Origin: Escherichia coli
Lineage (GTDB): Bacteria > Pseudomonadota > Gammaproteobacteria > Enterobacterales > Enterobacteriaceae
Assembly: GCF_965641715.1 (NCBI RefSeq)
Contig: NZ_OZ282453.1
Reading direction: 5' to 3' (one strand)
Length of the DNA stretch: 64,000 bases
Made by a program: the position numbers and the translations under genes. Under the pieces are notes generated by a model. That model worked only from the letters and a program-made list of their open reading frames with translations. It made no database searches and was not told the origin of the DNA. Positions 1,078-17,404 of the stretch are shown here, piece by piece. How positions within the stretch are numbered: the first letter of the stretch is position 1; every line of letters starts with the position of its first letter.

Positions 1078-1111
1078 ATGCCCGATAACATTTTGCTTAT
1101 CGGGCATTTTT
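1078..1111. terminator. Hairpin plus T-run between convergent lgoT and tsr
   Basis: Inverted repeat ATGCCCGATAA / TTATCGGGCAT followed by TTTT; coordinates approximate. Confidence 0.6.
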
Positions 1112-1118
1112 ATGGCGA

Positions 1119-2783
1119 TTAAAACGTTTCCCAGTTCTCCCCGCTATCTGCCACTGCCATTTTACGCGGCGTAGCTGGCGTCACGGTTTTTACCACAGCC
1201 GATGTTTCACGCTGCTGTTGCTGCTGTTGCTGAATCCGGAACACTGCCACAGCTTCGGTCAGGCGACTGGCCTGCTCTTCCAGCGCGGCGGCGGCAGCGG
1301 CAGATTCTTCCACCAGCGCGGCGTTCTGTTGAGTTACCCGGTCCATCTCAGCAACCGCTAAGCCAACCTGATCGATACCACGGCTCTGCTCATCAGAAGC
1401 AGAAGCAATTTCGCCCATAATGTCCGTCACGCGGGTCACAGCACTGACAATCTCCGCCATTGTTTCCCCGGCGCTTTCGACCAGCGTAGAGCCAACATCC
1501 ACTTTCCCCACCGAGTCTTCAATCAGGCTTTTAATTTCACGAGCCGCCTGGGCGCTACGCTGGGCCAGATTACGCACTTCACCCGCGACCACCGCAAAAC
1601 CGCGCCCTTGCTCACCCGCACGCGCAGCCTCAACCGCCGCGTTCAAAGCCAGAATATTGGTCTGGAAAGCAATGCCGTCAATTACGCTGATAATATCGGC
1701 GATTTTCTGCGAACTGGTGGAGATATCGCGCATAGTCTGCACCACGTTATCTACCACTTTGCCGCCGCGTTGCGCCGTTTCAGAAGCACTTAATGCCAGA
1801 TGGCTGGCCTGGCGCGCATTCTCGGCGTTCTGTTTCACCGTTGCGGTCAGTTGCTCCATGCTGGCTGCCGTCTCTTCCAGCGAAGCGGCCTGTTGCTCGG
1901 TGCGCGAAGAGAGATCGTTATTGCCGGTAGCGATTTCGCTGGCACCGCTATAGATGGCATTGGCCCCGTTGCGCACATCACCGACGGTACGCATCAGTTC
2001 TCCCTGCATATGGCGCAAACTCTCTGCCAGTTGCCCCATCTCATTAGAGCCATCCACCTCAATCGGTTTCACCAGATCGCCGCCTGCAATATGACGGATG
2101 CTGTCAATCAGGCGATTCATTGGCGCTACCAGCGAGGCTTTAATACCGAACCAGACGGCGAAGATGACCGCCAGTACCACGATCATCACGCCCACCAGAA
2201 TCCACATCGCCTGGCTGTAGGAGGCATTGTTATCGCTGACGGCGATATCATAGAGCCGATCGTTTTGCTCCATGTAAGCCACATACTGCTTCTCGAAACC
2301 GTCTTGATATCCCTGGGTCGGCTGATCAAAGAACTCGTTGATTTTGCCTGCACCTAACAGTTGGATCAGCTCCGCCAGCGCATTGTGATAAATATCGTAA
2401 TTACGTTTGATCTCTGCCGCTGCGGCGGTGCTCTGACGCGGGTCACGCGGCAACGCTTCGTAATCCGCCCAGTTTTTTTCCGCCTGTTTCAACGAAATAC
2501 TGGCACTCTGCATCAGCTCAGCAACGGTTGAACCGCTACCAATATTATTCTGATCCATCATGTAGCGGATACCCGCGCGGTTGAGGGTGTTACGCGTCTG
2601 CAACAACGCGACCCAGCTGCCATTCAGCGTGGATTGCTGCTGGCGAATGGTTTGTAAAACAGTGAAATTTTCTTTGTCATTCTTTAAGGCATTAAAGAAC
2701 AGACCGCCTGATGTCAGTTGTAAAAGGCCAAAAACGGCCAAAACCAGCAGTAAGCTGGTCACGATCTTGATACGTTTTAACAT
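1119..2783 (-). CDS. tsr: Methyl-accepting chemotaxis protein I (serine chemoreceptor)
   Basis: 554-aa ORF with HAMP and MCP signalling domain, Q/E methylation regions and C-terminal NWETF pentapeptide. Confidence 0.95.
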
Positions 2784-2812
2784 GGTTTCTCTTTCCTGTG
2801 GACCGATGCAAG

Positions 2813-2840
2813 ATTTTCGGCCTGGAAAGCAAAAACTTTA
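2813..2840 (-). promoter_or_regulatory. Sigma-28 (FliA) class III promoter for tsr
   Basis: Minus strand reads TAAAGTTT - 11 nt - GCCGAAAAT, matching the sigma-28 consensus TAAAGTTT-N11-GCCGATAA, about 30 nt upstream of the tsr ATG. Confidence 0.7.
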
Positions 2841-2901
2841 TGAAAAGGTGTAACCCGCCATCCATGGAAAAACCAGGCGCTGGTTATCAGATACTAAAAA
2901 G

Positions 2902-3348
2902 TTATTCATTATCGCCCGGGATGTCTTCTTGTCGGGAATTGCCCAGAGCAATAAATTCCTCTAACAGATGGGTTAACTGTTGCATTTTCTCGGCAGTAAA
3001 CTGAGCTTCAATCTGCCGATAGGCTTCTTCAATCTGTGTCTGAGCGCGGTTATACAGCGCCTGCCCCTCTTTGGTCAGCGAGATATAGAGCTTCCGCTGA
3101 TCATTGATCGGCTTTAATCGCAACACTAGACCGTCGCGTTCCATCCGCGTGAGGATCCCGGTCAGGCTTGGGCGCAAAATGCAGGCGCGATACGCCAGAT
3201 CGTGAAAATCCATTGATGGGCTTTCCGCCAGAATACGCACGATGCGCCACTGTTGCTCAGTCAAATTATGCCGTTTAACGATTGGGCGAAAATAACTCAT
3301 CGCCGCTTCTCGCGCCTGGAGCAACGCAATGGTTAGTGAGTCGTGCAT
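2902..3348 (-). CDS. hpaR: MarR-family repressor of the homoprotocatechuate pathway
   Basis: ORF 2902..3429; likely start at internal Met (MHDSLTIALLQ...) giving about 148 aa; MarR-like wHTH; divergent from hpaG. Confidence 0.85.
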   Translation of the reverse strand: MHDSLTIALLQAREAAMSYFRPIVKRHNLTEQQWRIVRILAESPSMDFHDLAYRACILRPSLTGILTRMERDGLVLRLKPINDQRKLYISLTKEGQALYNRAQTQIEEAYRQIEAQFTAEKMQQLTHLLEEFIALGNSRQEDIPGDNE

Positions 3349-3570
3349 TATCTTTCCCCTGAAAAATTCAAAATCATTAATATAGAAACAGTTAATCGTC
3401 ACGTTACCGGGACTGCGCTGTCCCTGCAATTCCTGATTTTATCAAAATTGATGATATTTTATTAACTTACTGATATTTAATATTTTATTATCTTTAAATG
3501 TAAATAGTTTGTTAATTAGATCACATTTACATCACTTACTTTTGCCAAACTACGCAATCGGGAATAAAAG

Positions 3571-3594
3571 TAATCATTAACATATTAATGATTA
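3571..3594. promoter_or_regulatory. Perfect 10-bp-arm palindrome in the hpaR-hpaG divergent promoter region; candidate HpaR operator
   Basis: TAATCATTAA-cata-TTAATGATTA, 26-49 bp upstream of the hpaG ATG inside an AT-rich spacer. Confidence 0.5.
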
Positions 3595-3619
3595 AGATGA
3601 TCGAATCCGAGGAGTGGTA

Positions 3620-4909
3620 ATGAAAGGCACTATCTTCGCCGTAGCGTTGAACCATCGCAGCCAGCTTGATGCATGGCAGGACGCGTTCCAGCAATCCCCC
3701 TACAAAGCCCCGCCTAAAACTGCGGTCTGGTTTATTAAACCGCGCAATACGGTGATTGGTTGCGGTGAACCGATTCCCTTTCCACAGAGTGAAAAGGTAC
3801 TGAGCGGTGCGACAGTTGCGCTGATTGTGGGAAAAACGGCGACGAAAGTACGTGAAGAAGATGCGGCAGAGTACATCGCCGGATATGCGCTGGCTAACGA
3901 CGTCAGCCTGCCGGAAGAGAGCTTTTACCGTCCGGCAATCAAAGCAAAATGTCGTGATGGATTCTGCCCCATTGGCGAAACCGTGGCTCTCAGCAATGTC
4001 GATAATCTGACTATCTATACCGAGATCAACGGGCGTCCTGCCGATCACTGGAATACCGCCGATTTACAACGTAACGCCGCACAGCTGCTGAGCGCCCTGA
4101 GCGAATTTGCCACGCTGAATCCAGGCGATGCTATTCTGCTCGGCACGCCACAGGCGCGCGTGGAAATACAGCCAGGCGATCGCGTGCGTGTTCTCGCAGA
4201 AGGTTTCCCGCCGCTGGAAAATCCGGTAGTGGACGAACGTGAAGTGACCACGCGCAAGAGCTTCCCAACGCAGCCACACCCGCACGGCACGCTGTTTGCC
4301 CTCGGCCTGAACTACGCCGACCACGCCAGCGAACTGGAATTTAAGCCACCGGAAGAACCGCTGGTGTTCCTGAAAGCGCCGAATACCCTCACTGGCGATA
4401 ACCAGACCTCCGTGCGCCCGAACAATATTGAATACATGCACTACGAAGCGGAGCTGGTGGTGGTGATTGGCAAGCAGGCGCGTAACGTCAGCGAAGCCGA
4501 TGCCATGGATTATGTCGCGGGCTACACCGTGTGTAACGACTACGCCATTCGCGACTATCTGGAAAACTACTACCGCCCTAACCTGCGGGTAAAAAGCCGC
4601 GACGGACTGACGCCGATGCTTTCAACCATCGTGCCGAAAGAGGCGATCCCGGACCCGCATAATCTGACCCTTCGCACCTTCGTCAACGGCGAGTTACGCC
4701 AGCAAGGCACCACCGCCGATCTGATCTTCAGCGTGCCCTTCCTGATCGCCTACTTAAGCGAATTTATGACCCTGAATCCGGGCGACATGATCGCCACCGG
4801 CACACCAAAAGGCTTATCTGACGTGGTGCCTGGCGATGAAGTAGTGGTGGAAGTAGAAGGCGTGGGCCGCTTGGTGAACCGAATTGTGAGTGAGGATACA
4901 GCGAAATGA
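3620..4909 (+). CDS. hpaG: Bifunctional OPET decarboxylase / HHDD isomerase (FAH family, duplicated domain)
   Basis: 429-aa product; GGAG SD 5 nt upstream of ATG 3620; stop overlaps hpaE start (ATGA). Confidence 0.9.
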   Translation: MKGTIFAVALNHRSQLDAWQDAFQQSPYKAPPKTAVWFIKPRNTVIGCGEPIPFPQSEKVLSGATVALIVGKTATKVREEDAAEYIAGYALANDVSLPEESFYRPAIKAKCRDGFCPIGETVALSNVDNLTIYTEINGRPADHWNTADLQRNAAQLLSALSEFATLNPGDAILLGTPQARVEIQPGDRVRVLAEGFPPLENPVVDEREVTTRKSFPTQPHPHGTLFALGLNYADHASELEFKPPEEPLVFLKAPNTLTGDNQTSVRPNNIEYMHYEAELVVVIGKQARNVSEADAMDYVAGYTVCNDYAIRDYLENYYRPNLRVKSRDGLTPMLSTIVPKEAIPDPHNLTLRTFVNGELRQQGTTADLIFSVPFLIAYLSEFMTLNPGDMIATGTPKGLSDVVPGDEVVVEVEGVGRLVNRIVSEDTAK

Positions 4910-6372
4910 AAAAAGTAAATCATTGGATCAACGGCAAAAATGTCGCAGGTAACGACTACTTCCAGACCACCAATCCGGCAACCGGTGAAGTGCTGGCGGA
5001 TGTGGCCTCTGGCGGTGAAGCGGAGATCAATCAGGCGGTAGCGGCAGCGAAAGAGGCGTTCCCGAAATGGGCCAATCTGCCGATGAAAGAGCGTGCGCGC
5101 CTGATGCGCCGTCTGGGCGATCTGATCGACCAGAACGTGCCGGAGATCGCCGCGATGGAAACCGCTGACACGGGCCTGCCGATCCATCAGACCAAAAACG
5201 TGTTGATCCCACGCGCTTCCCACAACTTTGAATTTTTCGCGGAAGTCTGCCAGCAGATGAACGGCAAGACCTATCCGGTTGACGACAAGATGCTCAACTA
5301 CACGCTGGTGCAGCCGGTGGGCGTTTGTGCGCTGGTATCGCCGTGGAACGTGCCGTTTATGACCGCCACCTGGAAGGTCGCGCCGTGTCTGGCGCTGGGC
5401 AATACCGCGGTGCTGAAGATGTCCGAACTCTCCCCGCTGACCGCTGACCGCCTGGGTGAGCTGGCGCTGGAAGCCGGTATTCCGGCGGGCGTGCTGAACG
5501 TGGTACAGGGCTACGGCGCAACCGCAGGCGATGCGCTGGTCCGTCATCATGACGTGCGTGCCGTGTCGTTCACCGGCGGTACGGCGACCGGGCGCAATAT
5601 CATGAAAAACGCCGGGCTGAAAAAATACTCCATGGAACTGGGCGGTAAATCGCCGGTGCTGATTTTTGAAGATGCCGATATTGAGCGCGCGCTGGACGCC
5701 GCCCTGTTCACCATCTTCTCGATCAACGGCGAACGCTGCACCGCCGGTTCGCGCATCTTTATTCAGCAGAGCATCTACCCGGAATTTATAAAGCGCTTTG
5801 CCGAACGCGCTAACCGTCTGCGCGTGGGCGATCCGACCGATCCGAATACCCAGGTGGGGGCGCTTATCAGCCAGCAACACTGGGAAAAAGTCTCCGGCTA
5901 TATCCGTCTGGGCATTGAAGAAGGCGCAACCCTGCTGGCGGGCGGCCCGGATAAACCGTCCGACCTGCCTGCGCACCTGAAAGGCGGCAACTTCCTGCGC
6001 CCAACGGTGCTGGCGGATGTCGATAACCGCATGCGAGTGGCGCAGGAAGAGATCTTCGGGCCGGTCGCCTGCCTGCTGCCGTTTAAAGACGAAGCCGAAG
6101 GTCTGCGCCTGGCAAACGACGTGGAGTACGGCCTCGCGTCGTACATCTGGACACAGGATGTCAGCAAAGTGTTACGCCTGGCGCGTGGCATTGAAGCAGG
6201 CATGGTGTTCGTCAACACCCAGAACGTGCGTGACCTGCGCCAGCCATTTGGCGGCGTAAAAGCCTCCGGCACCGGGCGTGAAGGCGGTGAGTACAGCTTC
6301 GAAGTGTTCGCGGAAATGAAGAACGTCTGCATTTCCATGGGCGACCATCCCATTCCGAAATGGGGAGTCTGA
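4906..6372 (+). CDS. hpaE: 5-carboxymethyl-2-hydroxymuconate semialdehyde dehydrogenase
   Basis: 488-aa aldehyde dehydrogenase family ORF. Confidence 0.9.
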   Translation: MKKVNHWINGKNVAGNDYFQTTNPATGEVLADVASGGEAEINQAVAAAKEAFPKWANLPMKERARLMRRLGDLIDQNVPEIAAMETADTGLPIHQTKNVLIPRASHNFEFFAEVCQQMNGKTYPVDDKMLNYTLVQPVGVCALVSPWNVPFMTATWKVAPCLALGNTAVLKMSELSPLTADRLGELALEAGIPAGVLNVVQGYGATAGDALVRHHDVRAVSFTGGTATGRNIMKNAGLKKYSMELGGKSPVLIFEDADIERALDAALFTIFSINGERCTAGSRIFIQQSIYPEFIKRFAERANRLRVGDPTDPNTQVGALISQQHWEKVSGYIRLGIEEGATLLAGGPDKPSDLPAHLKGGNFLRPTVLADVDNRMRVAQEEIFGPVACLLPFKDEAEGLRLANDVEYGLASYIWTQDVSKVLRLARGIEAGMVFVNTQNVRDLRQPFGGVKASGTGREGGEYSFEVFAEMKNVCISMGDHPIPKWGV

Positions 6373-6373
6373 T

Positions 6374-7225
6374 ATGGGTAAGTTAGCATTAGCAGCAAAA
6401 ATCACACACGTACCGTCGATGTATCTCTCTGAACTGCCTGGGAAAAACCACGGTTGTCGCCAGGGCGCGATCGACGGGCATAAAGAGATCAGCAAGCGTT
6501 GCCGGGAAATGGGCGTCGATACCATTATCGTTTTCGATACCCACTGGCTGGTCAACAGTGCTTATCACATCAACTGTGCAGACCATTTTGAAGGCGTCTA
6601 CACCAGCAACGAGCTGCCGCATTTTATTCGTGACATGACCTACAACTACGAGGGCAACCCGGAGTTGGGGCAGCTTATTGCCGATGAAGCCTTAAAGCTC
6701 GGCGTGCGGGCGAAAGCGCACAACATTCCCAGCCTCAAACTGGAGTACGGCACGCTGGTACCGATGCGCTACATGAATGAAGACAAGCGCTTCAAAGTGG
6801 TCTCCATTTCGGCTTTCTGCACGGTTCACGATTTTGCCGACAGCCGCAAGCTGGGCGAAGCGATTCTGAAAGCGATCGAACAGTACGACGGCACCGTGGC
6901 GGTCCTTGCCAGCGGTTCGTTATCGCACCGCTTTATTGACGATCAGCGTGCGGAAGAAGGGATGAACAGCTATACCCGCGAGTTCGACCGCCAGATGGAC
7001 GAGCGTGTGGTGAAGCTGTGGCGCGAAGGCCAGTTCAAAGAGTTTTGCAATATGCTGCCGGAGTACACCGACTACTGCTACGGCGAAGGCAATATGCACG
7101 ACACGGTGATGCTGCTGGGGATGCTCGGCTGGGATAAATACGACGGCAAGGTGGAGTTTATTACCGAGCTGTTCCCAAGCTCTGGCACCGGTCAGGTTAA
7201 CGCTGTTTTCCCGCTGCCCGCGTAA
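6374..7225 (+). CDS. hpaD: Homoprotocatechuate 2,3-dioxygenase (extradiol)
   Basis: 283-aa ORF immediately after hpaE. Confidence 0.9.
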   Translation: MGKLALAAKITHVPSMYLSELPGKNHGCRQGAIDGHKEISKRCREMGVDTIIVFDTHWLVNSAYHINCADHFEGVYTSNELPHFIRDMTYNYEGNPELGQLIADEALKLGVRAKAHNIPSLKLEYGTLVPMRYMNEDKRFKVVSISAFCTVHDFADSRKLGEAILKAIEQYDGTVAVLASGSLSHRFIDDQRAEEGMNSYTREFDRQMDERVVKLWREGQFKEFCNMLPEYTDYCYGEGNMHDTVMLLGMLGWDKYDGKVEFITELFPSSGTGQVNAVFPLPA

Positions 7226-7234
7226 GGACGTTTT

Positions 7235-7615
7235 ATGCCGCACTTTATCGTGGAATGTACTGAAAATATTCGTGAAGAAGCCCGCTTACCTGAGCTGTTT
7301 GCCAGTGTTAACACTGCACTGGCGGCAACGGGGATTTTTCCGCTTGGGGGAATACGTAGCCGGGCGCACTGGATCGATACCTGGCAAATGGCTGATGGCA
7401 AGCACGATTACGCCTTTGTGCATATGACGCTAAAAATCGGCAGCGGACGCAGTCTGGAAAGCCGTCAGGAAGTGGGCGAAATGCTGTTTGATCTGATTAA
7501 AACGCACTTCGCCTCACTGATGGAGAGCCGTTACCTGGCGCTTTCATTTGAGATTGCAGAGCTGCACCCGACGTTGAATTTCAAACAGAACAACGTACAC
7601 GCGTTGTTTAAATAA
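7235..7615 (+). CDS. hpaF: 5-carboxymethyl-2-hydroxymuconate isomerase
   Basis: 126-aa ORF, size and operon position. Confidence 0.85.
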
Positions 7616-7629
7616 ATTTGCACCAGCTT

Positions 7630-7662
7630 CCAGGCCGGATGATAAGGCGCTGCCGCATCCGG
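7630..7662. repeat. REP-like palindromic unit in the hpaF-hpaH spacer
   Basis: GCCGGATGATAAGGCG...CGCATCCGGC palindromic GC-rich unit. Confidence 0.5.
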
Positions 7663-7682
7663 CAATGCCACAGGATATCGCT

Positions 7683-8486
7683 ATGTTCGATAAACACACC
7701 CACACCCTGATCGCCCAGCGTCTGGATCAGGCAGAAAAACAGCGCGAACAGATCCGCGCGATCTCCCTGGATTATCCGGAGATCACCATCGAAGACGCTT
7801 ACGCGGTGCAGCGTGAATGGGTTCGACTGAAAATCGCCGAAGGTCGCACGCTGAAAGGCCACAAAATCGGCCTGACCTCGAAAGCGATGCAGGCCAGCTC
7901 GCAGATCAGCGAACCAGATTACGGTGCCCTGCTGGATGACATGTTCTTCCACGATGGCAGCGATATCCCGACCGATCGCTTTATCGTGCCGCGCATTGAA
8001 GTGGAGCTGGCTTTCGTGCTGGCAAAACCGCTGCGTGGGCCAAACTGCACGCTGTTCGACGTTTACAACGCCACGGACTATGTGATCCCGGCGCTGGAGC
8101 TGATCGACGCTCGCTGCCACAACATCGATCCGGAAACCCAGCGCCCGCGTAAAGTGTTCGACACCATTTCTGATAACGCCGCCAATGCCGGGGTGATCCT
8201 CGGTGGTCGTCCCATTAAGCCCGATGAGTTGGATCTACGTTGGATCTCCGCCCTGATGTATCGCAATGGCGTGATTGAAGAAACCGGCGTCGCCGCTGGT
8301 GTGCTGAATCATCCGGCAAACGGCGTGGCCTGGCTGGCGAACAAACTCGCACCCTATGACGTACAACTGGAAGCCGGGCAAATCATTCTCGGCGGTTCGT
8401 TTACCCGCCCGGTTCCGGCGCGTAAGGGCGACACCTTCCACGTCGATTACGGCAACATGGGCTCCATTAGCTGCCGCTTTGTTTAA
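7683..8486 (+). CDS. hpaH: 2-oxo-hept-3-ene-1,7-dioate hydratase
   Basis: ORF 7665..8486; likely start MFDKHTHTL... (about 267 aa). Confidence 0.85.
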
Positions 8487-8496
8487 GGAGAGAACG

Positions 8497-9300
8497 ATGG
8501 AAAACAGTTTTAAAGCGGCGCTGAAAGCAGGCCGCCCGCAGATCGGATTATGGCTGGGGCTGAGTAGCAGTTACAGCGCAGAGTTACTGGCCGGAGCAGG
8601 ATTCGACTGGTTGTTGATCGACGGTGAACACGCGCCGAACAACGTGCAAACCGTGCTCACCCAGCTACAGGCGATTGCGCCCTATCCCAGCCAACCGGTA
8701 GTACGTCCGTCGTGGAACGATCCAGTGCAAATCAAACAACTGCTGGACGTCGGTACACAAACCTTACTGGTGCCGATGGTACAAAACGCTGACGAAGCCC
8801 GTGAAGCGGTATGCGCCACCCGTTATCCCCCCGCCGGTATTCGCGGTGTGGGCAGTGCGCTGGCTCGCGCCTCGCGCTGGAATCGTATTCCTGATTACCT
8901 GCAAAAAGCCAACGATCAAATGTGCGTGCTGGTGCAGATCGAAACGCGTGAGGCAATGAAGAACTTACCGCAGATTCTGGACGTGGAAGGAGTCGACGGC
9001 GTGTTTATCGGCCCGGCGGATCTGAGCGCCGATATGGGTTATGCCGGTAATCCACAGCACCCGGAAGTACAGGTCGCCATTGAGCAGGCGATCGTGCAGA
9101 TCCGCGAAGCGGGCAAAGCGCCGGGGATTCTGATCGCCAATGAGCAACTGGCAAAACGCTATCTGGAACTGGGCGCGCTGTTTGTCGCCGTCGGCGTTGA
9201 CACCACCCTGCTCGCCCGCGCCGCTGAAGCGCTGGCAGCACGGTTTGGTAATAGTTCTTCTATTTCGATGGCGAAGCAAAACAACAACTCTGTCTACTAA
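8497..9300 (+). CDS. hpaI: 2,4-dihydroxyhept-2-ene-1,7-dioate aldolase
   Basis: HpcH/HpaI aldolase family; true start MENSFKAAL... with AAGGAG SD; the ORF-track start at 8356 is an overlapping upstream extension. Confidence 0.85.
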
Positions 9301-9321
9301 ACGTACGATGTGGAGCGCATC

Positions 9322-10677
9322 ATGACGACCTCTACCCTGCAATATAAAGATAATAAAACTGTTGAAATTGAACATCGTGTCATTAATAAATTATTTCGTC
9401 GCCTAATCATTTTTCTTTTTATTCTGTTTGTTTTTTCGTTTCTTGATCGCATCAATATAGGATTTGCCGGACTGACAATGGGCAAGGATCTTGGCCTGAC
9501 GTCCACAATGTTTGGCCTCGCCGCGACACTCTTTTATGTCACGTACGTCATGTGCGGGATCCCCAGTAATATGATGTTAGCGAAAATTGGCGCTCGTCGA
9601 TGGATCGCTGGGATCATGGTGGTCTGGGGAATTGCTTCCACCTGCACAATGTTTGCAACAAGCCCCGAAACACTCTATCTACTGCGTATGCTGGTTGGTA
9701 TTGCTGAGGCGGGTTTTTTACCTGGTATTTTGGTTTATCTGACCTGGTGGTTCCCGGCATATCATCGGGCCAGAGCCAATGCCTTATTTATGATAGCGAT
9801 GCCAGTCACTATGATGCTGGGATCGATCCTTTCAGGCTACATTCTGGCCTTGGATGGACTGTGGAATCTAAAAGGCTGGCAATGGCTCTTTTTGCTGGAA
9901 GGTCTGCCATCGGTCATTCTTGGTGTCGTCACCTGGTTTTATCTCAACGACACACCAGACCAGGCGACCTGGCTTGATGAAAACGAAAAACAGGCTTTAA
10001 AAACGATGATTCTCCGTGAACAAGAGAGTGCATTTGCCCATGCATCTGTTCCACGCTCAACCTTACGTGAAGTCCTGACCCCAGCCATCATGCTATATAC
10101 ACTTGCTTATTTTTGCCTGACCAATACTCTGAGTGCGATTAATATCTGGACGCCGCAAATCCTACAGAGTTTCAATACTGGCAGTAGCAACATCATGATT
10201 GGTTTGCTGGCGGCCATCCCCCAATTCTGCACAATTTTTGGCATGATCTGGTGGAGTCGTCGTTCCGACCGTCTTAAAGAACGCAAAAAGCATACGATTC
10301 TTCCCTACCTGTTTGCCGCTGCCGGATGGTTACTCGCTTCTGCGACAGATCACAGCCTCATTCAACTGAGCGGCATCATTATGGCCTCAATGGGATCATT
10401 TACCGCGATGGCTATCTTTTGGACAACACCGGATCAAGTTATAAGCTTGCAATCGCGTGCCGTTGCGATGGCTGTCATCAATGCTGTCGGCAATGTAGGT
10501 TCAGCAGTCAGTCCATTACTTATCGGTATTTTGAAAGATGCAACCGGCAGTTTTAGCTCAGGTTTGTGGTTTGTAGCAGGATTGCTGGTACTGGGCGCGT
10601 TAGTCATGACCCGAATCCCTATGGGGAGTCGGGAACACTCTCTTTCATCTGAACTTATCGCACCAAAACCGCAATAA
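9322..10677 (+). CDS. hpaX: 4-hydroxyphenylacetate permease (MFS)
   Basis: MFS transporter ORF; ATG 9322 has a GGAG SD (track start 9310 is GTG inside the SD); lower GC than flanking hpa genes. Confidence 0.85.
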   Translation: MTTSTLQYKDNKTVEIEHRVINKLFRRLIIFLFILFVFSFLDRINIGFAGLTMGKDLGLTSTMFGLAATLFYVTYVMCGIPSNMMLAKIGARRWIAGIMVVWGIASTCTMFATSPETLYLLRMLVGIAEAGFLPGILVYLTWWFPAYHRARANALFMIAMPVTMMLGSILSGYILALDGLWNLKGWQWLFLLEGLPSVILGVVTWFYLNDTPDQATWLDENEKQALKTMILREQESAFAHASVPRSTLREVLTPAIMLYTLAYFCLTNTLSAINIWTPQILQSFNTGSSNIMIGLLAAIPQFCTIFGMIWWSRRSDRLKERKKHTILPYLFAAAGWLLASATDHSLIQLSGIIMASMGSFTAMAIFWTTPDQVISLQSRAVAMAVINAVGNVGSAVSPLLIGILKDATGSFSSGLWFVAGLLVLGALVMTRIPMGSREHSLSSELIAPKPQ

Positions 10678-10683
10678 GGAGTC

Positions 10684-11577
10684 ATGATGTCCAGTGAAGC
10701 TATCTTTGAACATGGTTATGAAAATATTGATTTGGTCCGGGAATATGATGCCCGCTACGCTGGTGAAGATGTGCATTATGAAACATTTGCCCGGTTAGCG
10801 AATTTCTTTGGACGCGATATGCGCCCTCACTGGCACGATAGATATTTTCAACTCCATTATCTGGTCACTGGACGCATTACTTTACAACTGGATGAGCACT
10901 TCTATTCTGTGCGCGCACCGCTTTTTGTACTAACACCACCATCGGTGCCACATACTTTCTTTACTGATCCTGATAGCGATGGGCATGTTCTGACCGTACG
11001 TCAGGAGTTAATTTGGCCCCTGGTAGAAAAGCTCTGGCCTGGTAGTGGAGATGCCGCAATGCTACAAGGTATCTGTCTGTCACTGGAGGGAATGGAACAT
11101 ACACTGGCGGCATTAAATCATTATTGGCCGATAATATCCCGGGAGTTTCAACAAAATAAGCCAGGACGGGAAATTCTATTGCAATCACTGGCGCAAAGTA
11201 TTTTTACAATCCTACTGCGTGAAGCACCACCAAATGATATTTCAACATGCAGCGTGCGCGGCGAGATGTGTTTATTCCAGAAGTTTAATCGGCTGATTGA
11301 CGAAAATTATCGCCAACATTTAATGGTCCCTGAATATGCAACAATGCTCGGTATGAGTGAATCACGGCTTACCGAGCTGTGCCGACGTTTTGCCAATCAA
11401 TCGCCGAAGAGATTGATTTTCGAACGAGTGAGCCGGGAAGCCAGACGGCTTCTGCTCTATAGCGAGCAAAGCATCAACCAGATAGCCCTTGATCTTGGCT
11501 ACAAAGATCCCGCCTATTTCGCCCGTTTTTTCAACCGAATGATGGGTTGCTCACCAACACAATTCCGTGGTCGCTGA
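10684..11577 (+). CDS. hpaA: AraC/XylS-family activator of hpaBC
   Basis: 297-aa ORF with C-terminal AraC-type HTH. Confidence 0.85.
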   Translation: MMSSEAIFEHGYENIDLVREYDARYAGEDVHYETFARLANFFGRDMRPHWHDRYFQLHYLVTGRITLQLDEHFYSVRAPLFVLTPPSVPHTFFTDPDSDGHVLTVRQELIWPLVEKLWPGSGDAAMLQGICLSLEGMEHTLAALNHYWPIISREFQQNKPGREILLQSLAQSIFTILLREAPPNDISTCSVRGEMCLFQKFNRLIDENYRQHLMVPEYATMLGMSESRLTELCRRFANQSPKRLIFERVSREARRLLLYSEQSINQIALDLGYKDPAYFARFFNRMMGCSPTQFRGR

Positions 11578-11603
11578 CCATTTATCAACCTGAGAGACTC
11601 GAC

Positions 11604-12542
11604 ATGAAAATATCTTTACGCTCACTATTTGTGGCGTGCCTGATTGCGCCAGTGGCATTCACCTACGCCTCCGAACCGCAAGAAATGAAAATTGTACTAC
11701 TTGGAACGAAAGGTGGCCCTTCTTTATTAAAAGCTGACCGTTTACCGATGGCAACGGCACTTATTATTGGCAATAAAACCTGGTTAATTGATGCTGGTTA
11801 CGGGGCCAGCTTACAACTGGTAAAAAATAATATTCCACTGCGCCAGATTGATAATATTTTACTCACCCATTTACACAGTGATCATATTCTGGACTATCCA
11901 TCAGTCTTAATGAATGCATGGGCTAGCGGTCTGCAGGACAAAACTATTCATGTGTTCGGTCCGCCAGGCACCCGAGCCATGACCGCTGCCAGTTGGCAGG
12001 TCTTCGATCGGGACATCACACTGCGTATGGAAGAAGAAGGAAAACCCGATCCTCGCAAACTCGTTACAGCTCAAGATGTTGGTGAAGGCGTAGTTTATAA
12101 AGATGATACCGTGACCGTGACTGCATTAAAGGTCCCTCATTCTCCTTTCCCTGACGGTGAGGCTTTTGCTTATCGCTTCGACACACAAGGCAAGCGAATT
12201 GTCTTCTCAGGAGATACCTCGTACTTTCCCCCACTGGCAACTTTCTCAGAAGGCGCTGATATACTTGTGCATGAGGCCGTACATGAGCCCTCCGTCGCTA
12301 AGCTGGCAGACAGTATTGGCAATGGTAAAACACTGGCAAAAGCCATTGCTTCTCACCATACGACTATTGAGGATGTAGGCAAAATTGCCAATGAAGCAAA
12401 AGTGAAAAAACTCATCCTTAGCCACCTGGTACCAATCACCGTTCCGGATGAAACATGGAAGCAAGAAGCACAGAAAAACTATTCAGGCCCTATCGTCGTT
12501 GGTCATGAAAATATGACGATTACCATTCCATTCGCCCCATAA
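11604..12542 (+). CDS. Secreted MBL-fold metallo-hydrolase (function unknown)
   Basis: Signal peptide MKISLRSLFVACLIAPVAFTYA; HxHxDH motif (LTHLHSDHI) plus downstream His residues; AT-rich codon usage; sits between hpaA and hpaB. Confidence 0.75.
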   Translation: MKISLRSLFVACLIAPVAFTYASEPQEMKIVLLGTKGGPSLLKADRLPMATALIIGNKTWLIDAGYGASLQLVKNNIPLRQIDNILLTHLHSDHILDYPSVLMNAWASGLQDKTIHVFGPPGTRAMTAASWQVFDRDITLRMEEEGKPDPRKLVTAQDVGEGVVYKDDTVTVTALKVPHSPFPDGEAFAYRFDTQGKRIVFSGDTSYFPPLATFSEGADILVHEAVHEPSVAKLADSIGNGKTLAKAIASHHTTIEDVGKIANEAKVKKLILSHLVPITVPDETWKQEAQKNYSGPIVVGHENMTITIPFAP

Positions 12543-12768
12543 AAAATTCCGTCCCCGTTAGCCCTTGTTAGCGGGGAATATTATGATTTGCCTTACTGTA
12601 AGTTGATCACGATCGCAGTTTACTATTTAACTCCACCTTGCTGGCGAAAAGTACCAACGTTCGCCTGAAACGTCTCTTCCCGACAACCGCGTTCAACGCT
12701 TCAATTAAATAACAAAAACAACACACAAAATTAACAATCGTATTCCGATTAATACTGTAGAGGTCGAC

Positions 12769-14331
12769 ATGAAACCAGAAGATTTCCGCGCCAGTACCCA
12801 ACGTCCGTTCACCGGGGAAGAGTATCTGAAAAGCCTGCAGGATGGTCGCGAGATCTATATCTATGGCGAGCGAGTGAAAGACGTCACCACTCATCCGGCA
12901 TTTCGTAATGCGGCAGCGTCTGTTGCCCAACTGTACGACGCGCTGCACAAACCGGAGATGCAGGACTCTCTGTGTTGGAACACCGACACCGGCAGCGGCG
13001 GCTATACCCATAAATTCTTCCGCGTGGCGAAAAGTGCCGACGACCTGCGCCAGCAACGCGACGCCATCGCTGAGTGGTCACGCCTGAGCTATGGCTGGAT
13101 GGGCCGTACCCCAGACTACAAAGCCGCTTTCGGTTGCGCACTGGGCGCGAATCCGGGCTTTTACGGTCAGTTCGAGCAGAACGCCCGTAACTGGTATACC
13201 CGTATTCAGGAAACTGGCCTCTACTTTAACCACGCGATTGTTAACCCACCGATCGATCGTCATTTGCCGACCGATAAAGTGAAAGACGTTTACATCAAGC
13301 TGGAAAAAGAGACTGACGCCGGGATTATCGTCAGCGGTGCGAAAGTGGTTGCCACCAACTCGGCGCTGACTCACTACAACATGATTGGCTTCGGCTCGGC
13401 ACAAGTGATGGGCGAAAACCCGGACTTCGCACTGATGTTCGTTGCGCCAATGGATGCCGATGGCGTCAAATTAATCTCCCGCGCCTCTTATGAGATGGTC
13501 GCGGGTGCTACCGGCTCGCCATACGACTACCCGCTCTCCAGCCGCTTCGATGAGAACGATGCGATTCTGGTGATGGATAACGTGCTGATCCCATGGGAAA
13601 ACGTGCTGATCTACCGCGATTTTGATCGCTGCCGTCGCTGGACGATGGAAGGCGGTTTTGCCCGTATGTATCCGCTGCAAGCCTGTGTGCGCCTGGCAGT
13701 GAAACTCGACTTCATCACGGCACTGCTGAAAAAATCACTCGAATGTACCGGCACCCTGGAGTTCCGTGGTGTGCAGGCCGATCTCGGTGAAGTGGTAGCG
13801 TGGCGCAACACCTTCTGGGCATTGAGTGACTCGATGTGTTCAGAAGCGACGCCGTGGGTCAACGGGGCTTATTTACCGGATCATGCCGCACTGCAAACCT
13901 ATCGCGTACTGGCACCAATGGCCTACGCGAAGATCAAAAACATTATCGAACGCAACGTTACCAGTGGCCTGATCTACCTCCCTTCCAGTGCCCGTGACCT
14001 GAACAATCCGCAGATCGACCAGTATCTGGCGAAGTATGTGCGCGGTTCGAATGGTATGGATCACGTCCAGCGCATCAAGATCCTCAAACTGATGTGGGAC
14101 GCCATTGGCAGCGAATTTGGTGGTCGTCACGAGCTGTATGAAATCAACTACTCCGGTAGCCAGGATGAGATTCGCTTGCAATGTCTGCGCCAGGCACAAA
14201 GCTCCGGCAATATGGACAAGATGATGGCGATGGTTGATCGCTGCCTGTCGGAATACGACCAGAACGGCTGGACTGTGCCGCACCTGCACAACAACGACGA
14301 TATCAACATGCTGGATAAGCTGCTGAAATAA
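12769..14331 (+). CDS. hpaB: 4-hydroxyphenylacetate 3-monooxygenase, oxygenase component
   Basis: 520-aa ORF. Confidence 0.9.
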   Translation: MKPEDFRASTQRPFTGEEYLKSLQDGREIYIYGERVKDVTTHPAFRNAAASVAQLYDALHKPEMQDSLCWNTDTGSGGYTHKFFRVAKSADDLRQQRDAIAEWSRLSYGWMGRTPDYKAAFGCALGANPGFYGQFEQNARNWYTRIQETGLYFNHAIVNPPIDRHLPTDKVKDVYIKLEKETDAGIIVSGAKVVATNSALTHYNMIGFGSAQVMGENPDFALMFVAPMDADGVKLISRASYEMVAGATGSPYDYPLSSRFDENDAILVMDNVLIPWENVLIYRDFDRCRRWTMEGGFARMYPLQACVRLAVKLDFITALLKKSLECTGTLEFRGVQADLGEVVAWRNTFWALSDSMCSEATPWVNGAYLPDHAALQTYRVLAPMAYAKIKNIIERNVTSGLIYLPSSARDLNNPQIDQYLAKYVRGSNGMDHVQRIKILKLMWDAIGSEFGGRHELYEINYSGSQDEIRLQCLRQAQSSGNMDKMMAMVDRCLSEYDQNGWTVPHLHNNDDINMLDKLLK

Positions 14332-14348
14332 CGCAGCAGGAGGTTAAG

Positions 14349-14861
14349 ATGCAATTAGATGAACAACGCCTGCGCTTTCGTGACGCGATGGCCAGCCTGT
14401 CGGCAGCGGTAAATATTATCACCACCGAGGGCGACGCCGGACAATGCGGGATTACGGCAACGGCCGTCTGCTCGGTAACGGATACACCACCGTCGCTGAT
14501 GGTGTGCATTAACGCCAACAGTGCGATGAACCCGGTTTTTCAGGGCAACGGCAAGTTGTGCGTCAACGTCCTCAACCATGAGCAGGAGCTGATGGCACGC
14601 CACTTCGCGGGCATGACGGGCATGGCGATGGAAGAGCGTTTTAGCCTCTCGTGCTGGCAAAAAGGTCCGCTGGCGCAGCCGGTGCTAAAAGGTTCGCTGG
14701 CCAGTCTTGAAGGTGAGATCCGCGATGTGCAGGCAATTGGCACACATCTGGTGTATCTGGTGGAGATTAAAAACATCATCCTCAGTGCAGAAGGTCACGG
14801 ACTTATCTACTTTAAACGCCGTTTCCATCCGGTGATGCTGGAAATGGAAGCTGCGATTTAA
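14349..14861 (+). CDS. hpaC: 4-hydroxyphenylacetate 3-monooxygenase, flavin reductase component
   Basis: 170-aa flavin reductase-like ORF directly downstream of hpaB. Confidence 0.9.
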   Translation: MQLDEQRLRFRDAMASLSAAVNIITTEGDAGQCGITATAVCSVTDTPPSLMVCINANSAMNPVFQGNGKLCVNVLNHEQELMARHFAGMTGMAMEERFSLSCWQKGPLAQPVLKGSLASLEGEIRDVQAIGTHLVYLVEIKNIILSAEGHGLIYFKRRFHPVMLEMEAAI

Positions 14862-14867
14862 GCTCCA

Positions 14868-14901
14868 GCCCCTTCACGCATTCGTCGAAGGGGCATTTTT
14901 A
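14868..14901 (+). terminator. Rho-independent terminator after hpaC
   Basis: GCCCCTTC-loop-GAAGGGGC followed by ATTTTTATT. Confidence 0.75.
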
Positions 14902-14902
14902 T

Positions 14903-14918
14903 TGTGATCTCAATCACA
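14903..14918. promoter_or_regulatory. Consensus CRP site upstream of btsT
   Basis: TGTGA-tctcaa-TCACA, exact match to TGTGA-N6-TCACA, directly abutting the hpaC terminator. Confidence 0.7.
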
Positions 14919-14946
14919 TATCCACCCGATGAATAATTCTTGCCCA

Positions 14947-14995
14947 ACCGCTCACCGCCATTCCTGACCGCTTACATCCCTAAAATAACCACTCA
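14947..14995 (+). promoter_or_regulatory. Three direct repeats of the BtsR (YehT) motif ACC(G/A)CT(C/T)A
   Basis: ACCGCTCA, ACCGCTTA, ACCACTCA with 12- and 13-bp spacers; motif recalled from yjiY promoter literature. Confidence 0.6.
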
Positions 14996-15253
14996 GTTAT
15001 TTACCTTACTTTACGCGCGCGTATCTCTGGCAACATCACTGCAGGATAGCGGTCAATTTACCTCCTCAAACGCAACGCAAACCTAGAACGGCTTCGGCCT
15101 ATGATTAACAAATTACTCTATGGATTTTGGTTTGCAGGAAGGCAGCAAGTGAGTGAATCCCCGGGAGCTTACAACAGTAAGTGTCAGAGGTGAACGAACG
15201 CAGCTGCCGCACCTGTAAGCCAAAAGACGACGAGTAAAATGCCAGGTTTTACT

Positions 15254-17404
15254 ATGGATACGAAAAAACTATTCAAGCACATACCCTGGGTGATTCTCGG
15301 AATCATCGGTGCATTCTGCCTCGCGGTAGTTGCATTACGTCGGGGGGAGCACGTCAGCGCCCTGTGGATCGTGGTCGCCTCTGTGTCGGTGTATCTGGTG
15401 GCGTATCGCTACTACAGTCTGTACATCGCCCAGAAGGTGATGAAACTCGACCCCACACGCGCGACGCCTGCGGTTATTAACAACGACGGTCTGAACTACG
15501 TTCCGACCAACCGTTACGTGTTGTTTGGTCACCACTTCGCCGCTATCGCCGGTGCTGGTCCGCTGGTTGGTCCGGTGCTCGCCGCGCAGATGGGCTACCT
15601 GCCTGGCACGCTGTGGCTGCTGGCGGGGGTAGTGCTGGCCGGTGCGGTACAGGACTTTATGGTGCTGTTTATCTCCTCTCGCCGTAACGGCGCATCTCTC
15701 GGTGAGATGATCAAAGAAGAGATGGGGCCAGTACCGGGGACTATCGCGCTGTTTGGCTGTTTTTTAATCATGATCATCATCCTCGCCGTTCTGGCGCTGA
15801 TTGTGGTTAAAGCCCTGGCCGAAAGTCCGTGGGGTGTCTTCACCGTTTGCTCAACCGTACCAATTGCGCTGTTTATGGGTATCTACATGCGCTTTATCCG
15901 TCCGGGGCGTGTGGGTGAAGTCTCTGTCATTGGTATCGTGCTGCTGGTTGCCTCTATCTACTTCGGTGGCGTGATTGCTCACGATCCGTACTGGGGTCCG
16001 GCACTGACCTTTAAAGACACCACCATTACCTTCGCGCTGATTGGCTATGCGTTTGTTTCCGCACTGCTGCCGGTGTGGCTGATCCTCGCACCGCGCGATT
16101 ATCTGGCAACCTTCCTGAAAATCGGCGTTATCGTCGGCCTGGCGCTGGGTATCGTGGTGCTGAACCCGGAACTGAAAATGCCTGCGATGACCCAGTACAT
16201 TGACGGTACTGGCCCGCTGTGGAAAGGCGCTCTGTTCCCGTTCCTGTTCATCACCATCGCCTGTGGTGCGGTATCTGGCTTCCACGCGCTGATCTCTTCC
16301 GGTACGACGCCGAAACTGCTGGCTAACGAAACCGACGCGCGTTTCATTGGCTACGGCGCAATGCTGATGGAGTCCTTCGTGGCGATTATGGCGCTGGTTG
16401 CTGCGTCCATCATCGAACCGGGTCTTTACTTCGCGATGAATACCCCGCCTGCGGGCCTTGGCATCACCATGCCTAACCTGCATGAAATGGGTGGCGAGAA
16501 CGCGCCGATCATCATGGCGCAGCTGAAAGACGTTACCGCACACGCGGCGGCGACCGTCAGCTCCTGGGGCTTCGTGATTTCGCCAGAGCAGATCCTGCAA
16601 ACCGCGAAAGACATTGGTGAGCCTTCTGTCCTGAACCGTGCAGGTGGTGCGCCGACGCTGGCGGTAGGTATCGCTCATGTGTTCCACAAAGTGCTGCCGA
16701 TGGCTGACATGGGCTTCTGGTATCACTTCGGTATTCTGTTCGAAGCCCTGTTCATCCTGACCGCGCTGGATGCGGGTACCCGTTCTGGCCGCTTTATGCT
16801 GCAAGACCTGCTGGGTAACTTCATCCCGTTCCTGAAAAAAACCGACTCTCTGGTTGCCGGTATCATCGGTACTGCGGGCTGTGTGGGTCTGTGGGGCTAC
16901 CTGCTGTATCAGGGCGTGGTCGATCCGCTGGGCGGCGTTAAGAGCCTGTGGCCGCTGTTCGGTATCTCCAACCAGATGCTGGCAGCCGTAGCGCTGGTAC
17001 TGGGCACCGTTGTGCTGATTAAGATGAAGCGCACCCAATACATCTGGGTAACTGTTGTTCCGGCTGTATGGCTGCTTATCTGCACCACCTGGGCGCTGGG
17101 TCTGAAACTGTTCAGTACCAACCCGCAGATGGAAGGCTTCTTCTACATGGCAAGCCAGTACAAAGAGAAGATTGCTAACGGTACTGACCTGACGGCGCAG
17201 CAGATTGCCAACATGAACCACATCGTTGTGAACAACTACACCAACGCAGGCCTGAGTATTCTGTTCCTGATTGTGGTGTACAGCATCATCTTCTACGGTT
17301 TCAAAACCTGGCTTGCGGTGCGTAACAGCGACAAACGTACTGACAAAGAAACACCGTACGTTCCAATCCCGGAAGGCGGCGTGAAGATCTCTTCGCACCA
17401 CTAA
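15254..17404 (+). CDS. btsT: Pyruvate/H+ symporter, CstA family
   Basis: ORF 15239..17404; likely start MDTKKLFKHIPW (716 aa); polytopic CstA-type transporter; synteny with yjiX-yjiA. Confidence 0.9.
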   Translation: MDTKKLFKHIPWVILGIIGAFCLAVVALRRGEHVSALWIVVASVSVYLVAYRYYSLYIAQKVMKLDPTRATPAVINNDGLNYVPTNRYVLFGHHFAAIAGAGPLVGPVLAAQMGYLPGTLWLLAGVVLAGAVQDFMVLFISSRRNGASLGEMIKEEMGPVPGTIALFGCFLIMIIILAVLALIVVKALAESPWGVFTVCSTVPIALFMGIYMRFIRPGRVGEVSVIGIVLLVASIYFGGVIAHDPYWGPALTFKDTTITFALIGYAFVSALLPVWLILAPRDYLATFLKIGVIVGLALGIVVLNPELKMPAMTQYIDGTGPLWKGALFPFLFITIACGAVSGFHALISSGTTPKLLANETDARFIGYGAMLMESFVAIMALVAASIIEPGLYFAMNTPPAGLGITMPNLHEMGGENAPIIMAQLKDVTAHAAATVSSWGFVISPEQILQTAKDIGEPSVLNRAGGAPTLAVGIAHVFHKVLPMADMGFWYHFGILFEALFILTALDAGTRSGRFMLQDLLGNFIPFLKKTDSLVAGIIGTAGCVGLWGYLLYQGVVDPLGGVKSLWPLFGISNQMLAAVALVLGTVVLIKMKRTQYIWVTVVPAVWLLICTTWALGLKLFSTNPQMEGFFYMASQYKEKIANGTDLTAQQIANMNHIVVNNYTNAGLSILFLIVVYSIIFYGFKTWLAVRNSDKRTDKETPYVPIPEGGVKISSHH

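Follow-up and report, generated by a model that had tools for sequence, protein, structure and literature searches.

The closest described counterparts of the locus examined here are the hpa clusters of Escherichia coli W, B and C. In E. coli W, 4-hydroxyphenylacetate (4-HPA) is taken up by HpaX, and HpaA together with 4-HPA switches on the hpaBC promoter. HpaBC converts 4-HPA to homoprotocatechuate by hydroxylation, upon which HpaR repression of hpaGEDFHI is lifted, and the end products of the hpaGEDFHI pathway are pyruvate and succinic semialdehyde. That hpa lies between tsr and btsT, and is missing in K-12, has been textbook knowledge since the 1990s; the cluster of E. coli W, B and C was reportedly described in 1996 by Prieto, Diaz and Garcia in J Bacteriol 178:111, and an earlier description of its tsr/cstA-like flanks presumably exists. 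Published work places hpa in E. coli B and W and not in K-12 (PMC3446290, PMC5909237, PMC4468947), reports experiments in which K-12 acquires hpa from B or W donors by recombination (PMC5909237), and finds the distribution of hpa to be structured by phylogroup (PMC12444784). Here we describe a variant hpa cluster in a 64,000-nucleotide stretch of an E. coli chromosome (contig NZ_OZ282453.1; the whole stretch is hereafter called the window). We consider it quite probable that this is an old, btsT-linked locus of the Enterobacteriaceae, polymorphic in Escherichia, which in the window carries a rare, derived replacement of positions 9250–12697.

Chromosomes of E. coli that match the window are ~98% identical to it over its first 19 kb. 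The open reading frame (ORF) map and the RefSeq annotation of these matching records give the order lgoT, tsr, hpaR, hpaG-E-D-F-H-I, hpaX, hpaA, an ORF with a metallo-beta-lactamase (MBL) fold, hpaB-hpaC, btsT, yjiX and yjiA, with the cluster in a chromosomal position between tsr and btsT (yjiY). All 11 canonical genes (hpaR, G, E, D, F, H, I, X, A, B and C) are present, each above its NCBIfam equivalog cut-off, and the canonical order and orientation are kept, with hpaR divergent from hpaGEDFHI, followed by hpaXA and then hpaBC. The block is the canonical chromosomal hpa cluster, predicted to encode catabolism of 3- and 4-hydroxyphenylacetate via homoprotocatechuate meta-cleavage; an earlier reading made from the sequence only had named it as the hpa cluster, and the 11 equivalog scores bear this out. 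The genes outside the replaced segment are:

1119..2783, minus strand: tsr, serine chemoreceptor, left flank (NCBIfam PRK15041, 1225 bits against a cut-off of 947; RefSeq annotation of matching records)
2902..3348, minus strand: hpaR, MarR-type repressor of the meta operon (TIGR02337, 201 bits against a cut-off of 121)
3620..9300, plus strand: hpaG-hpaE-hpaD-hpaF-hpaH-hpaI, homoprotocatechuate meta-cleavage operon (each gene above its equivalog cut-off)
12769..14861, plus strand: hpaB-hpaC, two-component 4-HPA 3-monooxygenase (TIGR02310, 1110 bits against a cut-off of 885; PRK15486, 386 against 315)
15254..17404, plus strand: btsT (yjiY), pyruvate/H+ symporter, right flank (RefSeq annotation; 90–100% protein identity over 80 species)

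The window shares with the clusters of E. coli W, B and C the same 11 genes, their order and orientation, and the tsr-btsT/yjiY position, and is 96–99% identical to them across hpaR-hpaI and hpaBC. It departs from them in that 9250–12697 is replaced, an extra MBL-fold gene is present, the C-terminus of HpaI is chimeric, and the hpaBC promoter differs in its upstream half. Since hpaX-hpaA has diverged from the common allele and an additional ORF of 312 amino acids (aa) of the MBL fold is present, the window holds a variant of the hpa cluster rather than the W/B/C type. The features of the replaced segment and its right-hand edge are:

9250..12697, plus strand: rare replacement segment, comprising the last 17 codons of hpaI, hpaX, hpaA, the MBL gene and the upstream half of the hpaBC promoter
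9322..10677, plus strand: hpaX, 4-HPA permease, variant class, 451 aa (TIGR02332, 863 bits against a cut-off of 615)
10684..11577, plus strand: hpaA, AraC-type activator of hpaBC, variant class (TIGR02297, 493 bits against a cut-off of 275)
11604..12542, plus strand: extra gene, MBL-fold hydrolase with a signal-peptide-like N-terminus and an HLHSDH motif (Pfam Lactamase_B_2)
12552..12577, plus strand: hairpin 3' of the MBL gene, terminator-like with a weak U-tract (-21 kcal/mol, z -3.9)
12698..12768, plus strand: hpaBC promoter core and leader of the common E. coli type (1 mismatch to O121 in 71 bp)

The limits of the segment were read against the common allele of O121:H19, which is of the same type as W, B and C. 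Identity to this allele is 98% up to 9249, falls to 59–71% through hpaX-hpaA, and returns to ~99% from 12698. The left breakpoint lies exactly at 9249|9250 (...GCACGGTTTGGT|AATAG), inside hpaI and 17 codons before its stop, so that the C-terminus of HpaI is chimeric. The right breakpoint is at ~12697|12698, within the hpaBC promoter region and 71 bp 5' of the hpaB ATG. On the 5' side of 12698, the similarity of the window is to the intergenic region found in its nearest variant-class relative (GTTGATCRCGATCGCAGTTTA...), not to the common allele, and from this the HpaA activator and the activator-proximal half of the promoter appear to have moved together. No mapped HpaA operator was found in the literature consulted. 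The hpaI-hpaX spacer is 21 bp in the window (9301–9321), against 174 bp in the common allele. In the latter, the spacer (L003:9786-9959) contains palindromes resembling repetitive extragenic palindromic elements or bacterial interspersed mosaic elements (REP/BIME; GCCGGATGCGC...CTTATCCGGCCTAC, judged by eye), which are missing from the variant.

Base composition sets the segment apart. The hpaX, hpaA and MBL genes have a GC content of 46–47% and a third-codon-position GC (GC3) of 41–48%, against 50–60% and 56–72%, respectively, for all other genes from lgoT to yjiA; as a whole, the segment has 46.6% GC, and the common hpaX-hpaA 53.6%. Among 5426 complete E. coli genomes, the set to which all E. 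coli counts below refer, 48 carry the segment, and all copies are at least 99.1% identical. The suggestion from the first look at the sequence that the hpaX-hpaA-MBL stretch is more AT-rich and of mosaic origin therefore holds, given the sharp breakpoints, the 48/5426 distribution and the low GC3. Three carriers differ from the window by 0.1–0.9% inside the segment and by 2.3–2.7% in the adjacent hpa genes. Because carriers differ less inside the segment than in its neighbours, the pattern points to one relatively recent introduction of the segment into E. coli.

For the relatives of the segment we turn to its proteins. Variant HpaX is 87–91% identical to its counterparts in Raoultella planticola, Enterobacter asburiae and Lelliottia (76–78% at the DNA level), and 68–72% identical to those of Klebsiella, Citrobacter R56 and NCU1, and Pseudocitrobacter. 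Outside E. coli, variant HpaA is closest to a metagenomic enterobacterium protein (83%) and to that of Pluralibacter gergoviae (80%); it is 51–66% identical to HpaA of Salmonella and Klebsiella, and 59–62% to the common class in the syntenic hpa-positive genera. Donor searches with the MBL and HpaA proteins reached a ceiling of 83–85% protein identity, and the best overall DNA match was 77%. Salmonella was rejected as the donor, at 67–71% DNA identity and 52% GC against 46.6%, as were Pluralibacter and the metagenomic enterobacterium, for which nothing exceeded 74–78% DNA identity. Like the window, the hpa cluster of Salmonella enterica ends in hpaX-hpaA-MBL, in the same order and with an MBL protein 77% identical; unlike the window, it occupies another locus (near sopB/pipD and cbpA-scsABCD) and has hpaBC inverted at the cluster's other end.

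The Salmonella arrangement, together with the wide occurrence of variant-class HpaX in Raoultella, Enterobacter and Lelliottia, is what would be expected if the hpaX-hpaA-MBL version were ancestral in E. coli and the common W/B/C-type hpaX-hpaA were the replacement. Four observations make this extremely unlikely. There are 48 genomes with the variant and about 2020 with the common type; diversity within the segment is 3- to 20-fold below that of the flanking hpa genes; its GC3 and GC stand apart from the rest of the locus and from common hpaX-hpaA, respectively, by the values given above (41–48% against 56–72%, and 46.6% against 53.6%); and the Salmonella module shares only 67–71% DNA identity and sits at a different locus. 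In our preferred reading, the direction of change is thus from the common type to the variant: homologous recombination, breaking within the 3' end of hpaI and in the hpaBC promoter, would have brought in the 3.45-kb segment 9250–12697 from a donor that was probably a lower-GC member of the Enterobacterales. Such a replacement would jointly exchange permease, activator and activator-proximal promoter half, and would add a putatively secreted MBL-fold hydrolase.

The age of the locus as a whole is indicated by other genera. We scanned species-representative genomes containing BtsT, taking 10-kb flanks and mapping the neighbouring genes by tblastn. The stretch hpaE-hpaC immediately precedes btsT-yjiX-yjiA in four Raoultella genomes, in Klebsiella spallanzanii, K. 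grimontii and K. michiganensis, in Enterobacter asburiae, Enterobacter sp. 10-1 and Lelliottia nimipressuralis, in two species of Pseudocitrobacter, and in Citrobacter spp. R56, NCU1 and 18056. A complete hpaR-hpaC cluster adjoining btsT was confirmed in three of the syntenic genomes. The window's order of hpaR, hpaG-I, hpaX, hpaA, hpaB, hpaC, btsT, yjiX and yjiA is shared by Klebsiella (oxytoca group), Raoultella, Enterobacter, Lelliottia, Pseudocitrobacter, and Citrobacter R56 and NCU1, as is a terminator followed by a conserved CRP site. These genera differ from the window in having no MBL gene and a distance from hpaC to the CRP site of 41 to about 150 nt. Their left-hand neighbours differ as well: in Raoultella a hydroxyproline cluster stands there, in K. 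michiganensis D-serine/dgo genes, and in Pseudocitrobacter four further genes precede tsr. DNA identity to the window for hpaE, hpaD, hpaH and hpaB is 84–90% in the syntenic genera (92–96% in Pseudocitrobacter), while for the flanks in the same genera it is 84–88% (btsT) and 81–88% (yjiA). That hpa has diverged to the same degree as btsT and yjiA fits co-inheritance, and speaks against recent acquisition by E. coli.

Within E. coli, the block has exact edges, which are defined by the following features:

2814..2840, minus strand: tsr sigma-28 promoter (-35 element TAAAGTTT at 2833–2840, 11-nt spacer, -10 element GCCGAAAA at 2814–2821)
2845..14902: variable block relative to K-12, 12,058 bp (blastn and direct reading against C600)
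14868..14903, plus strand: hpaC intrinsic terminator (hairpin 14868–14894, U-tract 14895–14903)
14903..14918, plus strand: btsT consensus CRP site TGTGATCTCAATCACA, unique in the window
14947..14974, plus strand: direct repeat ACCGCTCA-N12-ACCGCTTA, presumed BtsR (YehT) boxes, conserved across genera
15109..15238, plus strand: 130-bp imperfect palindrome resembling an enterobacterial repetitive intergenic consensus or intergenic repeat unit (ERIC/IRU), in the btsT leader and outside hpa (-53 kcal/mol, z -5.8)

On the left, homology of the window to K-12 runs from base 1 to 2844, as established by blastn and direct reading against C600, and ~90 bp of K-12 filler stand where the window has the 12,058-bp block. 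In C600, a K-12 derivative, tsr and btsT are separated by a spacer of 377 bp, confirming the statement in the sequence-only reading that the two genes are neighbours in K-12; their adjacency without hpa holds in K-12 and in most hpa-negative genomes. That reading had placed the block at 2841–14902, of which the end is correct and the start is 4 bp off, as K-12 homology reaches 2844. The left edge of the variable block is 4 bp past the tsr -35 box, and this box is kept in K-12, O157 and hpa-positive haplotypes, and also in Salmonella and Citrobacter. The sigma-28 consensus promoter to which it belongs, TAAAGTTT-N11-GCCGAAAA, has one match in the 64-kb window against 0.00 expected. A putative hpaR terminator (AACCAG-CGC-CTGGTT-TTT) within 2845–2901 was rejected, with a z of -0.4 and folding no better than shuffled sequence. 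At the gathering threshold, Rfam gave no match across 2500–15500.

On the right, the hpaC stop codon (14859–14861) is followed by a hairpin at 14868–14894 (-18 kcal/mol, z -5.4; none of 200 shuffles folded equally well) and a U-tract at 14895–14903. A simple terminator scan overlooked this element, the stem of which is bulged, and it was found by folding. The perfect CRP motif TGTGA-N6-TCACA occurs once in the window (14903–14918; 0.04 expected), and as the last base of the U-tract is the first T of the CRP site, the terminator tail touches the CRP half-site. The first impression of a very tight junction here between the hpaC terminator and the CRP site of btsT was therefore accurate. BLAST-level similarity to K-12 restarts at 14948 and not at the CRP site. 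This delay arises because the window and K-12 agree at only 18 of the 45 positions that lie between the CRP site and the second ACCGCTTA repeat. The two stretches are equal in length, the CRP site of K-12 itself (TGTGATATGAATCACA) also lying 45 nt from the ACCGCTCA/ACCGCTTA repeat. We presume this repeat to be the BtsR boxes, reportedly described by Kraxenberger et al. 2012. A CRP-like site is present 221–228 bp 5' of the btsT ATG in all 12 genera inspected, and sequence conservation ends there. Expression of btsT/yjiY requires cAMP-CRP (PMC5431176), and the BtsR motif is described as conserved, with no more stated (PMC5552118).

Comparison across the genomes shows the tsr-btsT gap to be a multi-allelic site. 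The hpa meta operon is present in 2072 of the 5426 genomes, at 96–98% identity to the window, and filler of the K-12 type, which varies by up to 10%, in 2753. In 366 genomes, the gap holds O157:H7-type filler that is unrelated to the other two and contains a 543-bp orphan ORF; the remaining ~235 genomes have other content. The O157:H7 filler is ~800 bp long with low GC, and its orphan ORF (L004:3312-3854) encodes 180 aa without a match in Pfam or NCBIfam. The three major fillers share both edges, starting directly after AAAACTTTAT (the tsr -35 box) and stopping at the CRP site. As the same edges are found in three unrelated fillers, the tight junctions are a property of the site and not of hpa. 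The sequence-only reading had reported them for an inserted island, and they are better explained by selection on promoter elements; we infer that selection keeps the outermost promoter elements of tsr and btsT, leaving the interior exchangeable.

Other Escherichia species indicate that these alleles are not confined to E. coli. In Escherichia sp. MOD1-EC7003, the final ~113 bp of hpaC remain upstream of btsT together with the terminator and the CRP site (L018:9619-9735), adjoining a cassette encoding a tripartite ATP-independent periplasmic (TRAP) transporter; on its sequence, this 3' remnant of hpaC is recognisable as a deletion scar left by loss of the cluster. K-12, unlike MOD1-EC7003, has no hpa scar, as blastn found no similarity between its 90-bp filler and the hpa block. 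In Escherichia sp. E1V33, a hydroxyproline-catabolism cluster abuts the CRP site (L017:4800-9650) and is followed by an hpa-type downstream haplotype (43/45). A hydroxyproline cluster of this type also flanks hpaR in Raoultella and Pluralibacter. E. albertii has K-12-type filler and matches K-12 at 37/45 positions of the CRP-proximal stretch. With the hpa-type haplotype in E1V33 and the K-12-type haplotype in E. albertii, both either predate or cross the Escherichia species boundaries. Between E. coli strains, the hpa genes differ by 2–5%, as much as or more than the flanking genes. RefSeq calls hpaI frameshifted in the carrier strain A30 (L015:9246-10051) and hpaA frameshifted in O121:H19 16-9255 (L003:11346-12235), and given these calls some hpa clusters may be in decay.

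These observations bear on whether a foreign 12-kb catabolic island was recently inserted into an ancestral, K-12-like tsr-btsT gap of E. coli, as the sequence-only reading had it. Such an insertion would account for the adjacency of tsr and btsT in K-12 and most hpa-negative genomes, for the empty arrangement in Salmonella and Citrobacter, for the K-12-type filler of E. albertii, and for junctions that are both exact to within a few bases. We nevertheless judge it very improbable. No integrase, recombinase or transposase is encoded in 2845–14902, where every ORF is an hpa gene or the MBL gene; no tRNA gene lies in window positions 1–20000; and no direct repeats bracket 2845 and 14902, nor does any repeat family have copies at both ends. 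The start of hpaX and the ribosome-binding region of hpaB share 16 nt in inverted orientation (9320–9335/12757–12772); being one of 23 such pairs, this match was attributed to chance. Composition is ordinary, with a GC3 of 56–72% in the catabolic genes against 60–69% in tsr, btsT and yjiA, only 9250–12697 being atypical. Linkage of hpaBC to btsT in at least six other genera, with core-like divergence, is not the distribution of a patchy gain. Further points against a recent insertion are the 2–5% diversity of hpa within E. coli, the hpaC remnant or hpa-type btsT promoter haplotype of other Escherichia species, and the third, unrelated cassette that displaces the 90-bp K-12 filler in 366 genomes. 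The hpa cluster is not supported as a mobile island.

We instead favour an old Enterobacteriaceae locus linked to btsT-yjiX-yjiA, of which presence or absence in Escherichia would be an old polymorphism. Deletion or replacement may maintain this polymorphism, together with the exchange of alleles by homologous recombination within the conserved flanks. The interval that varies would be limited by the tsr sigma-28 -35 box on the left and the btsT CRP site on the right. As these are the outermost elements under selection, each alternative cassette would end flush at both edges and bring its own terminator.

Several observations weigh against this reading. An empty tsr-btsT arrangement, with a spacer of 83–92 nt, is found in Salmonella arizonae/diarizonae, the Citrobacter freundii group, Kosakonia, Phytobacter and Superficieibacter, and E. 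albertii has the K-12 filler (37/45 in the CRP-proximal stretch). Because the empty gap is so widespread and E. albertii shares that filler, the root state of the family and of Escherichia may be either, and an insertion, albeit an ancient one, is needed. The sample of other genera consists of the 80 best BtsT matches among species representatives. In Pseudocitrobacter vendiensis, hpaE-hpaD is 95–97% identical to the window, compared with 82–87% for hpaF and btsT, a pattern showing that inter-genus transfer affects the locus and that descent is not purely vertical. Lastly, the donor of 9250–12697 was not found in searches with the MBL and HpaA proteins or in context look-ups, where the best DNA identity was 74–78%. 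In the comparison of P. vendiensis with window positions 4906–7000, hpaE-hpaD falls within the E. coli allelic range, and hpaF, hpaB, hpaC and btsT are at 82–88%; on sequence identity, this indicates recent inter-genus recombination inside the meta operon between P. vendiensis and E. coli, in either direction.

The same exchange could be cited for an early introgression, in which Escherichia was ancestrally hpa-negative (of the K-12/E. albertii type) and gained a whole hpa-btsT-proximal haplotype from another genus of the Enterobacteriaceae by homologous recombination in tsr/lgoT and btsT. The hpa-linked 45-nt haplotype (GCCCAACCGCT...) would fit this history, being nearer to those of hpa-positive Klebsiella, Raoultella and Pseudocitrobacter than K-12's is, and just 18/45 identical to K-12's, and the 95–97% identity of P. 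vendiensis hpaE-hpaD to the window demonstrates that genera do exchange these genes. That exchange could run in either direction, though, and hpaF, hpaB, hpaC and btsT are 78–89% identical to those of every sampled genus, so that no whole-cluster donor is visible. As two further Escherichia species also carry the hpa-type haplotype or an hpaC remnant, we regard introgression as unlikely, and retain the old polymorphism as the preferred account.

The gene added by the replacement encodes a product of 312 aa, matching Pfam Lactamase_B_2 and scoring below every NCBIfam cut-off. It starts 26 nt past the hpaA stop and is preceded by a GAGAGA motif resembling a ribosome-binding site; this short gap, the motif and the -21 kcal/mol hairpin after the gene suggest that hpaX-hpaA-MBL is one transcription unit. 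The AlphaFold model has a predicted local distance difference test (pLDDT) score of 89.7. The best solved relative, by fold (template modelling (TM) score 0.80) and by sequence (E 1.5e-25), is the arylsulfatase 8gyg, at 24–31% identity, with RNase Z (E 2e-23), YhfI and PNGM-1 scoring close behind. The HLHSDH sequence of the product aligns with the HxHxDH metal-binding motif of 8gyg. The ElaC/AtsA clade of MBL-fold hydrolases constitutes family S4 of SulfAtlas (PMC5066984); the product has in common with this clade (AtsA; 8gyg) the MBL fold and the HxHxDH motif, and is set apart by an identity of only 24–31% and by RNase Z, YhfI and PNGM-1 scoring nearly as well.

By eye, the N-terminus of the product (MKISLRSLFVACLIAPVAFTYASE) is signal-peptide-like, and hydrophobic leaders ending in A-x-A are seen in 8/8 homologues. 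In the homoprotocatechuate operons of Pseudomonas putida and Alcanivorax xiamenensis, the gene directly following hpaI encodes a homologue that is 53–57% identical. These operons resemble the window in having, within a homoprotocatechuate cluster, an MBL homologue with a signal-peptide-like N-terminus, and differ in their split hpaG1 and hpaG2, in the position of hpaX inside the operon, and in the lack of an adjacent hpaA. Family members in homoprotocatechuate clusters were located in P. putida (L103:6001-6981), A. xiamenensis (L104:6001-6954), Salmonella enterica (L005:7216-8154) and E. coli (window 11604–12542). The homologue in Castellaniella is not in a homoprotocatechuate context. The hpaY gene of P. 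putida was considered as a member and rejected, as it is a second HpaR. In the literature on hpaX or hpaA with metallo-beta-lactamase or arylsulfatase, no description of the MBL gene was found.

In mice, most circulating 4-hydroxyphenylacetic acid (4-HPAA) is glucuronidated or sulfated (PMC8262340). Given the signal-like leaders, the arylsulfatase-like relatives, the hpa context and the conjugation of host 4-HPAA, a periplasmic deconjugating role is a reasonable hypothesis. We advance it tentatively, as a possibility with the balance against it: the MBL protein may belong to an accessory family of homoprotocatechuate/4-HPA clusters that releases hydroxyphenylacetates in the periplasm from conjugates such as O-sulfate esters, which account for a large share of host 4-HPAA.

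Two further features lie to the right of hpa. Downstream of yjiA, positions 18700–28500 of the window have low GC (29–38%) and contain a type I restriction-modification system (HsdR with an EcoEI-type C-terminus, HsdM and HsdS) and a GmrSD-family nuclease; we take this to be the known variable 'immigration control' region of E. coli. The ERIC/IRU-like palindrome at 15109–15238 lies 16 bp 5' of the btsT start codon, and its core matches the ERIC1R and ERIC2 primer sequences. The element is present in the window, O121, A30, M7424, E. albertii and Escherichia sp. E1V33, and absent from K-12 C600, O157:H7, ST2747 and Escherichia sp. MOD1-EC7003. Since translation of btsT is controlled by CsrA (PMC5431176), an ERIC-like insertion in the btsT leader could change its expression.

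The hpa cluster and its absence from K-12 are long known, and the rare replacement module and the recurrent association with an MBL gene are modest novelties. Three points are new. First, the tsr-btsT gap appears to be an old, syntenic, multi-allelic site with edges set by the flanking promoters, which cautions against equating presence or absence, as judged against K-12, with insertion. Second, a swapped transporter-regulator-promoter module is carried by about 1% of E. coli, which is relevant where HpaA and the hpaBC promoter serve as biosensor parts and where HpaBC strains are employed in biocatalysis. Third, in distant Gammaproteobacteria a putatively secreted MBL-fold hydrolase recurs in linkage with homoprotocatechuate clusters, which offers a concrete and cheap enzymological hypothesis on how bacteria may use host-conjugated phenolic acids. 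If the proposed role is true, the freed hydroxyphenylacetates would feed HpaX, and in the gut the pathway would draw on a wider set of substrates. In that case, the replacement segment would be a self-contained module for sensing, uptake and pre-processing, with its own activator-binding promoter half, that passes between hpa clusters via homologous recombination.

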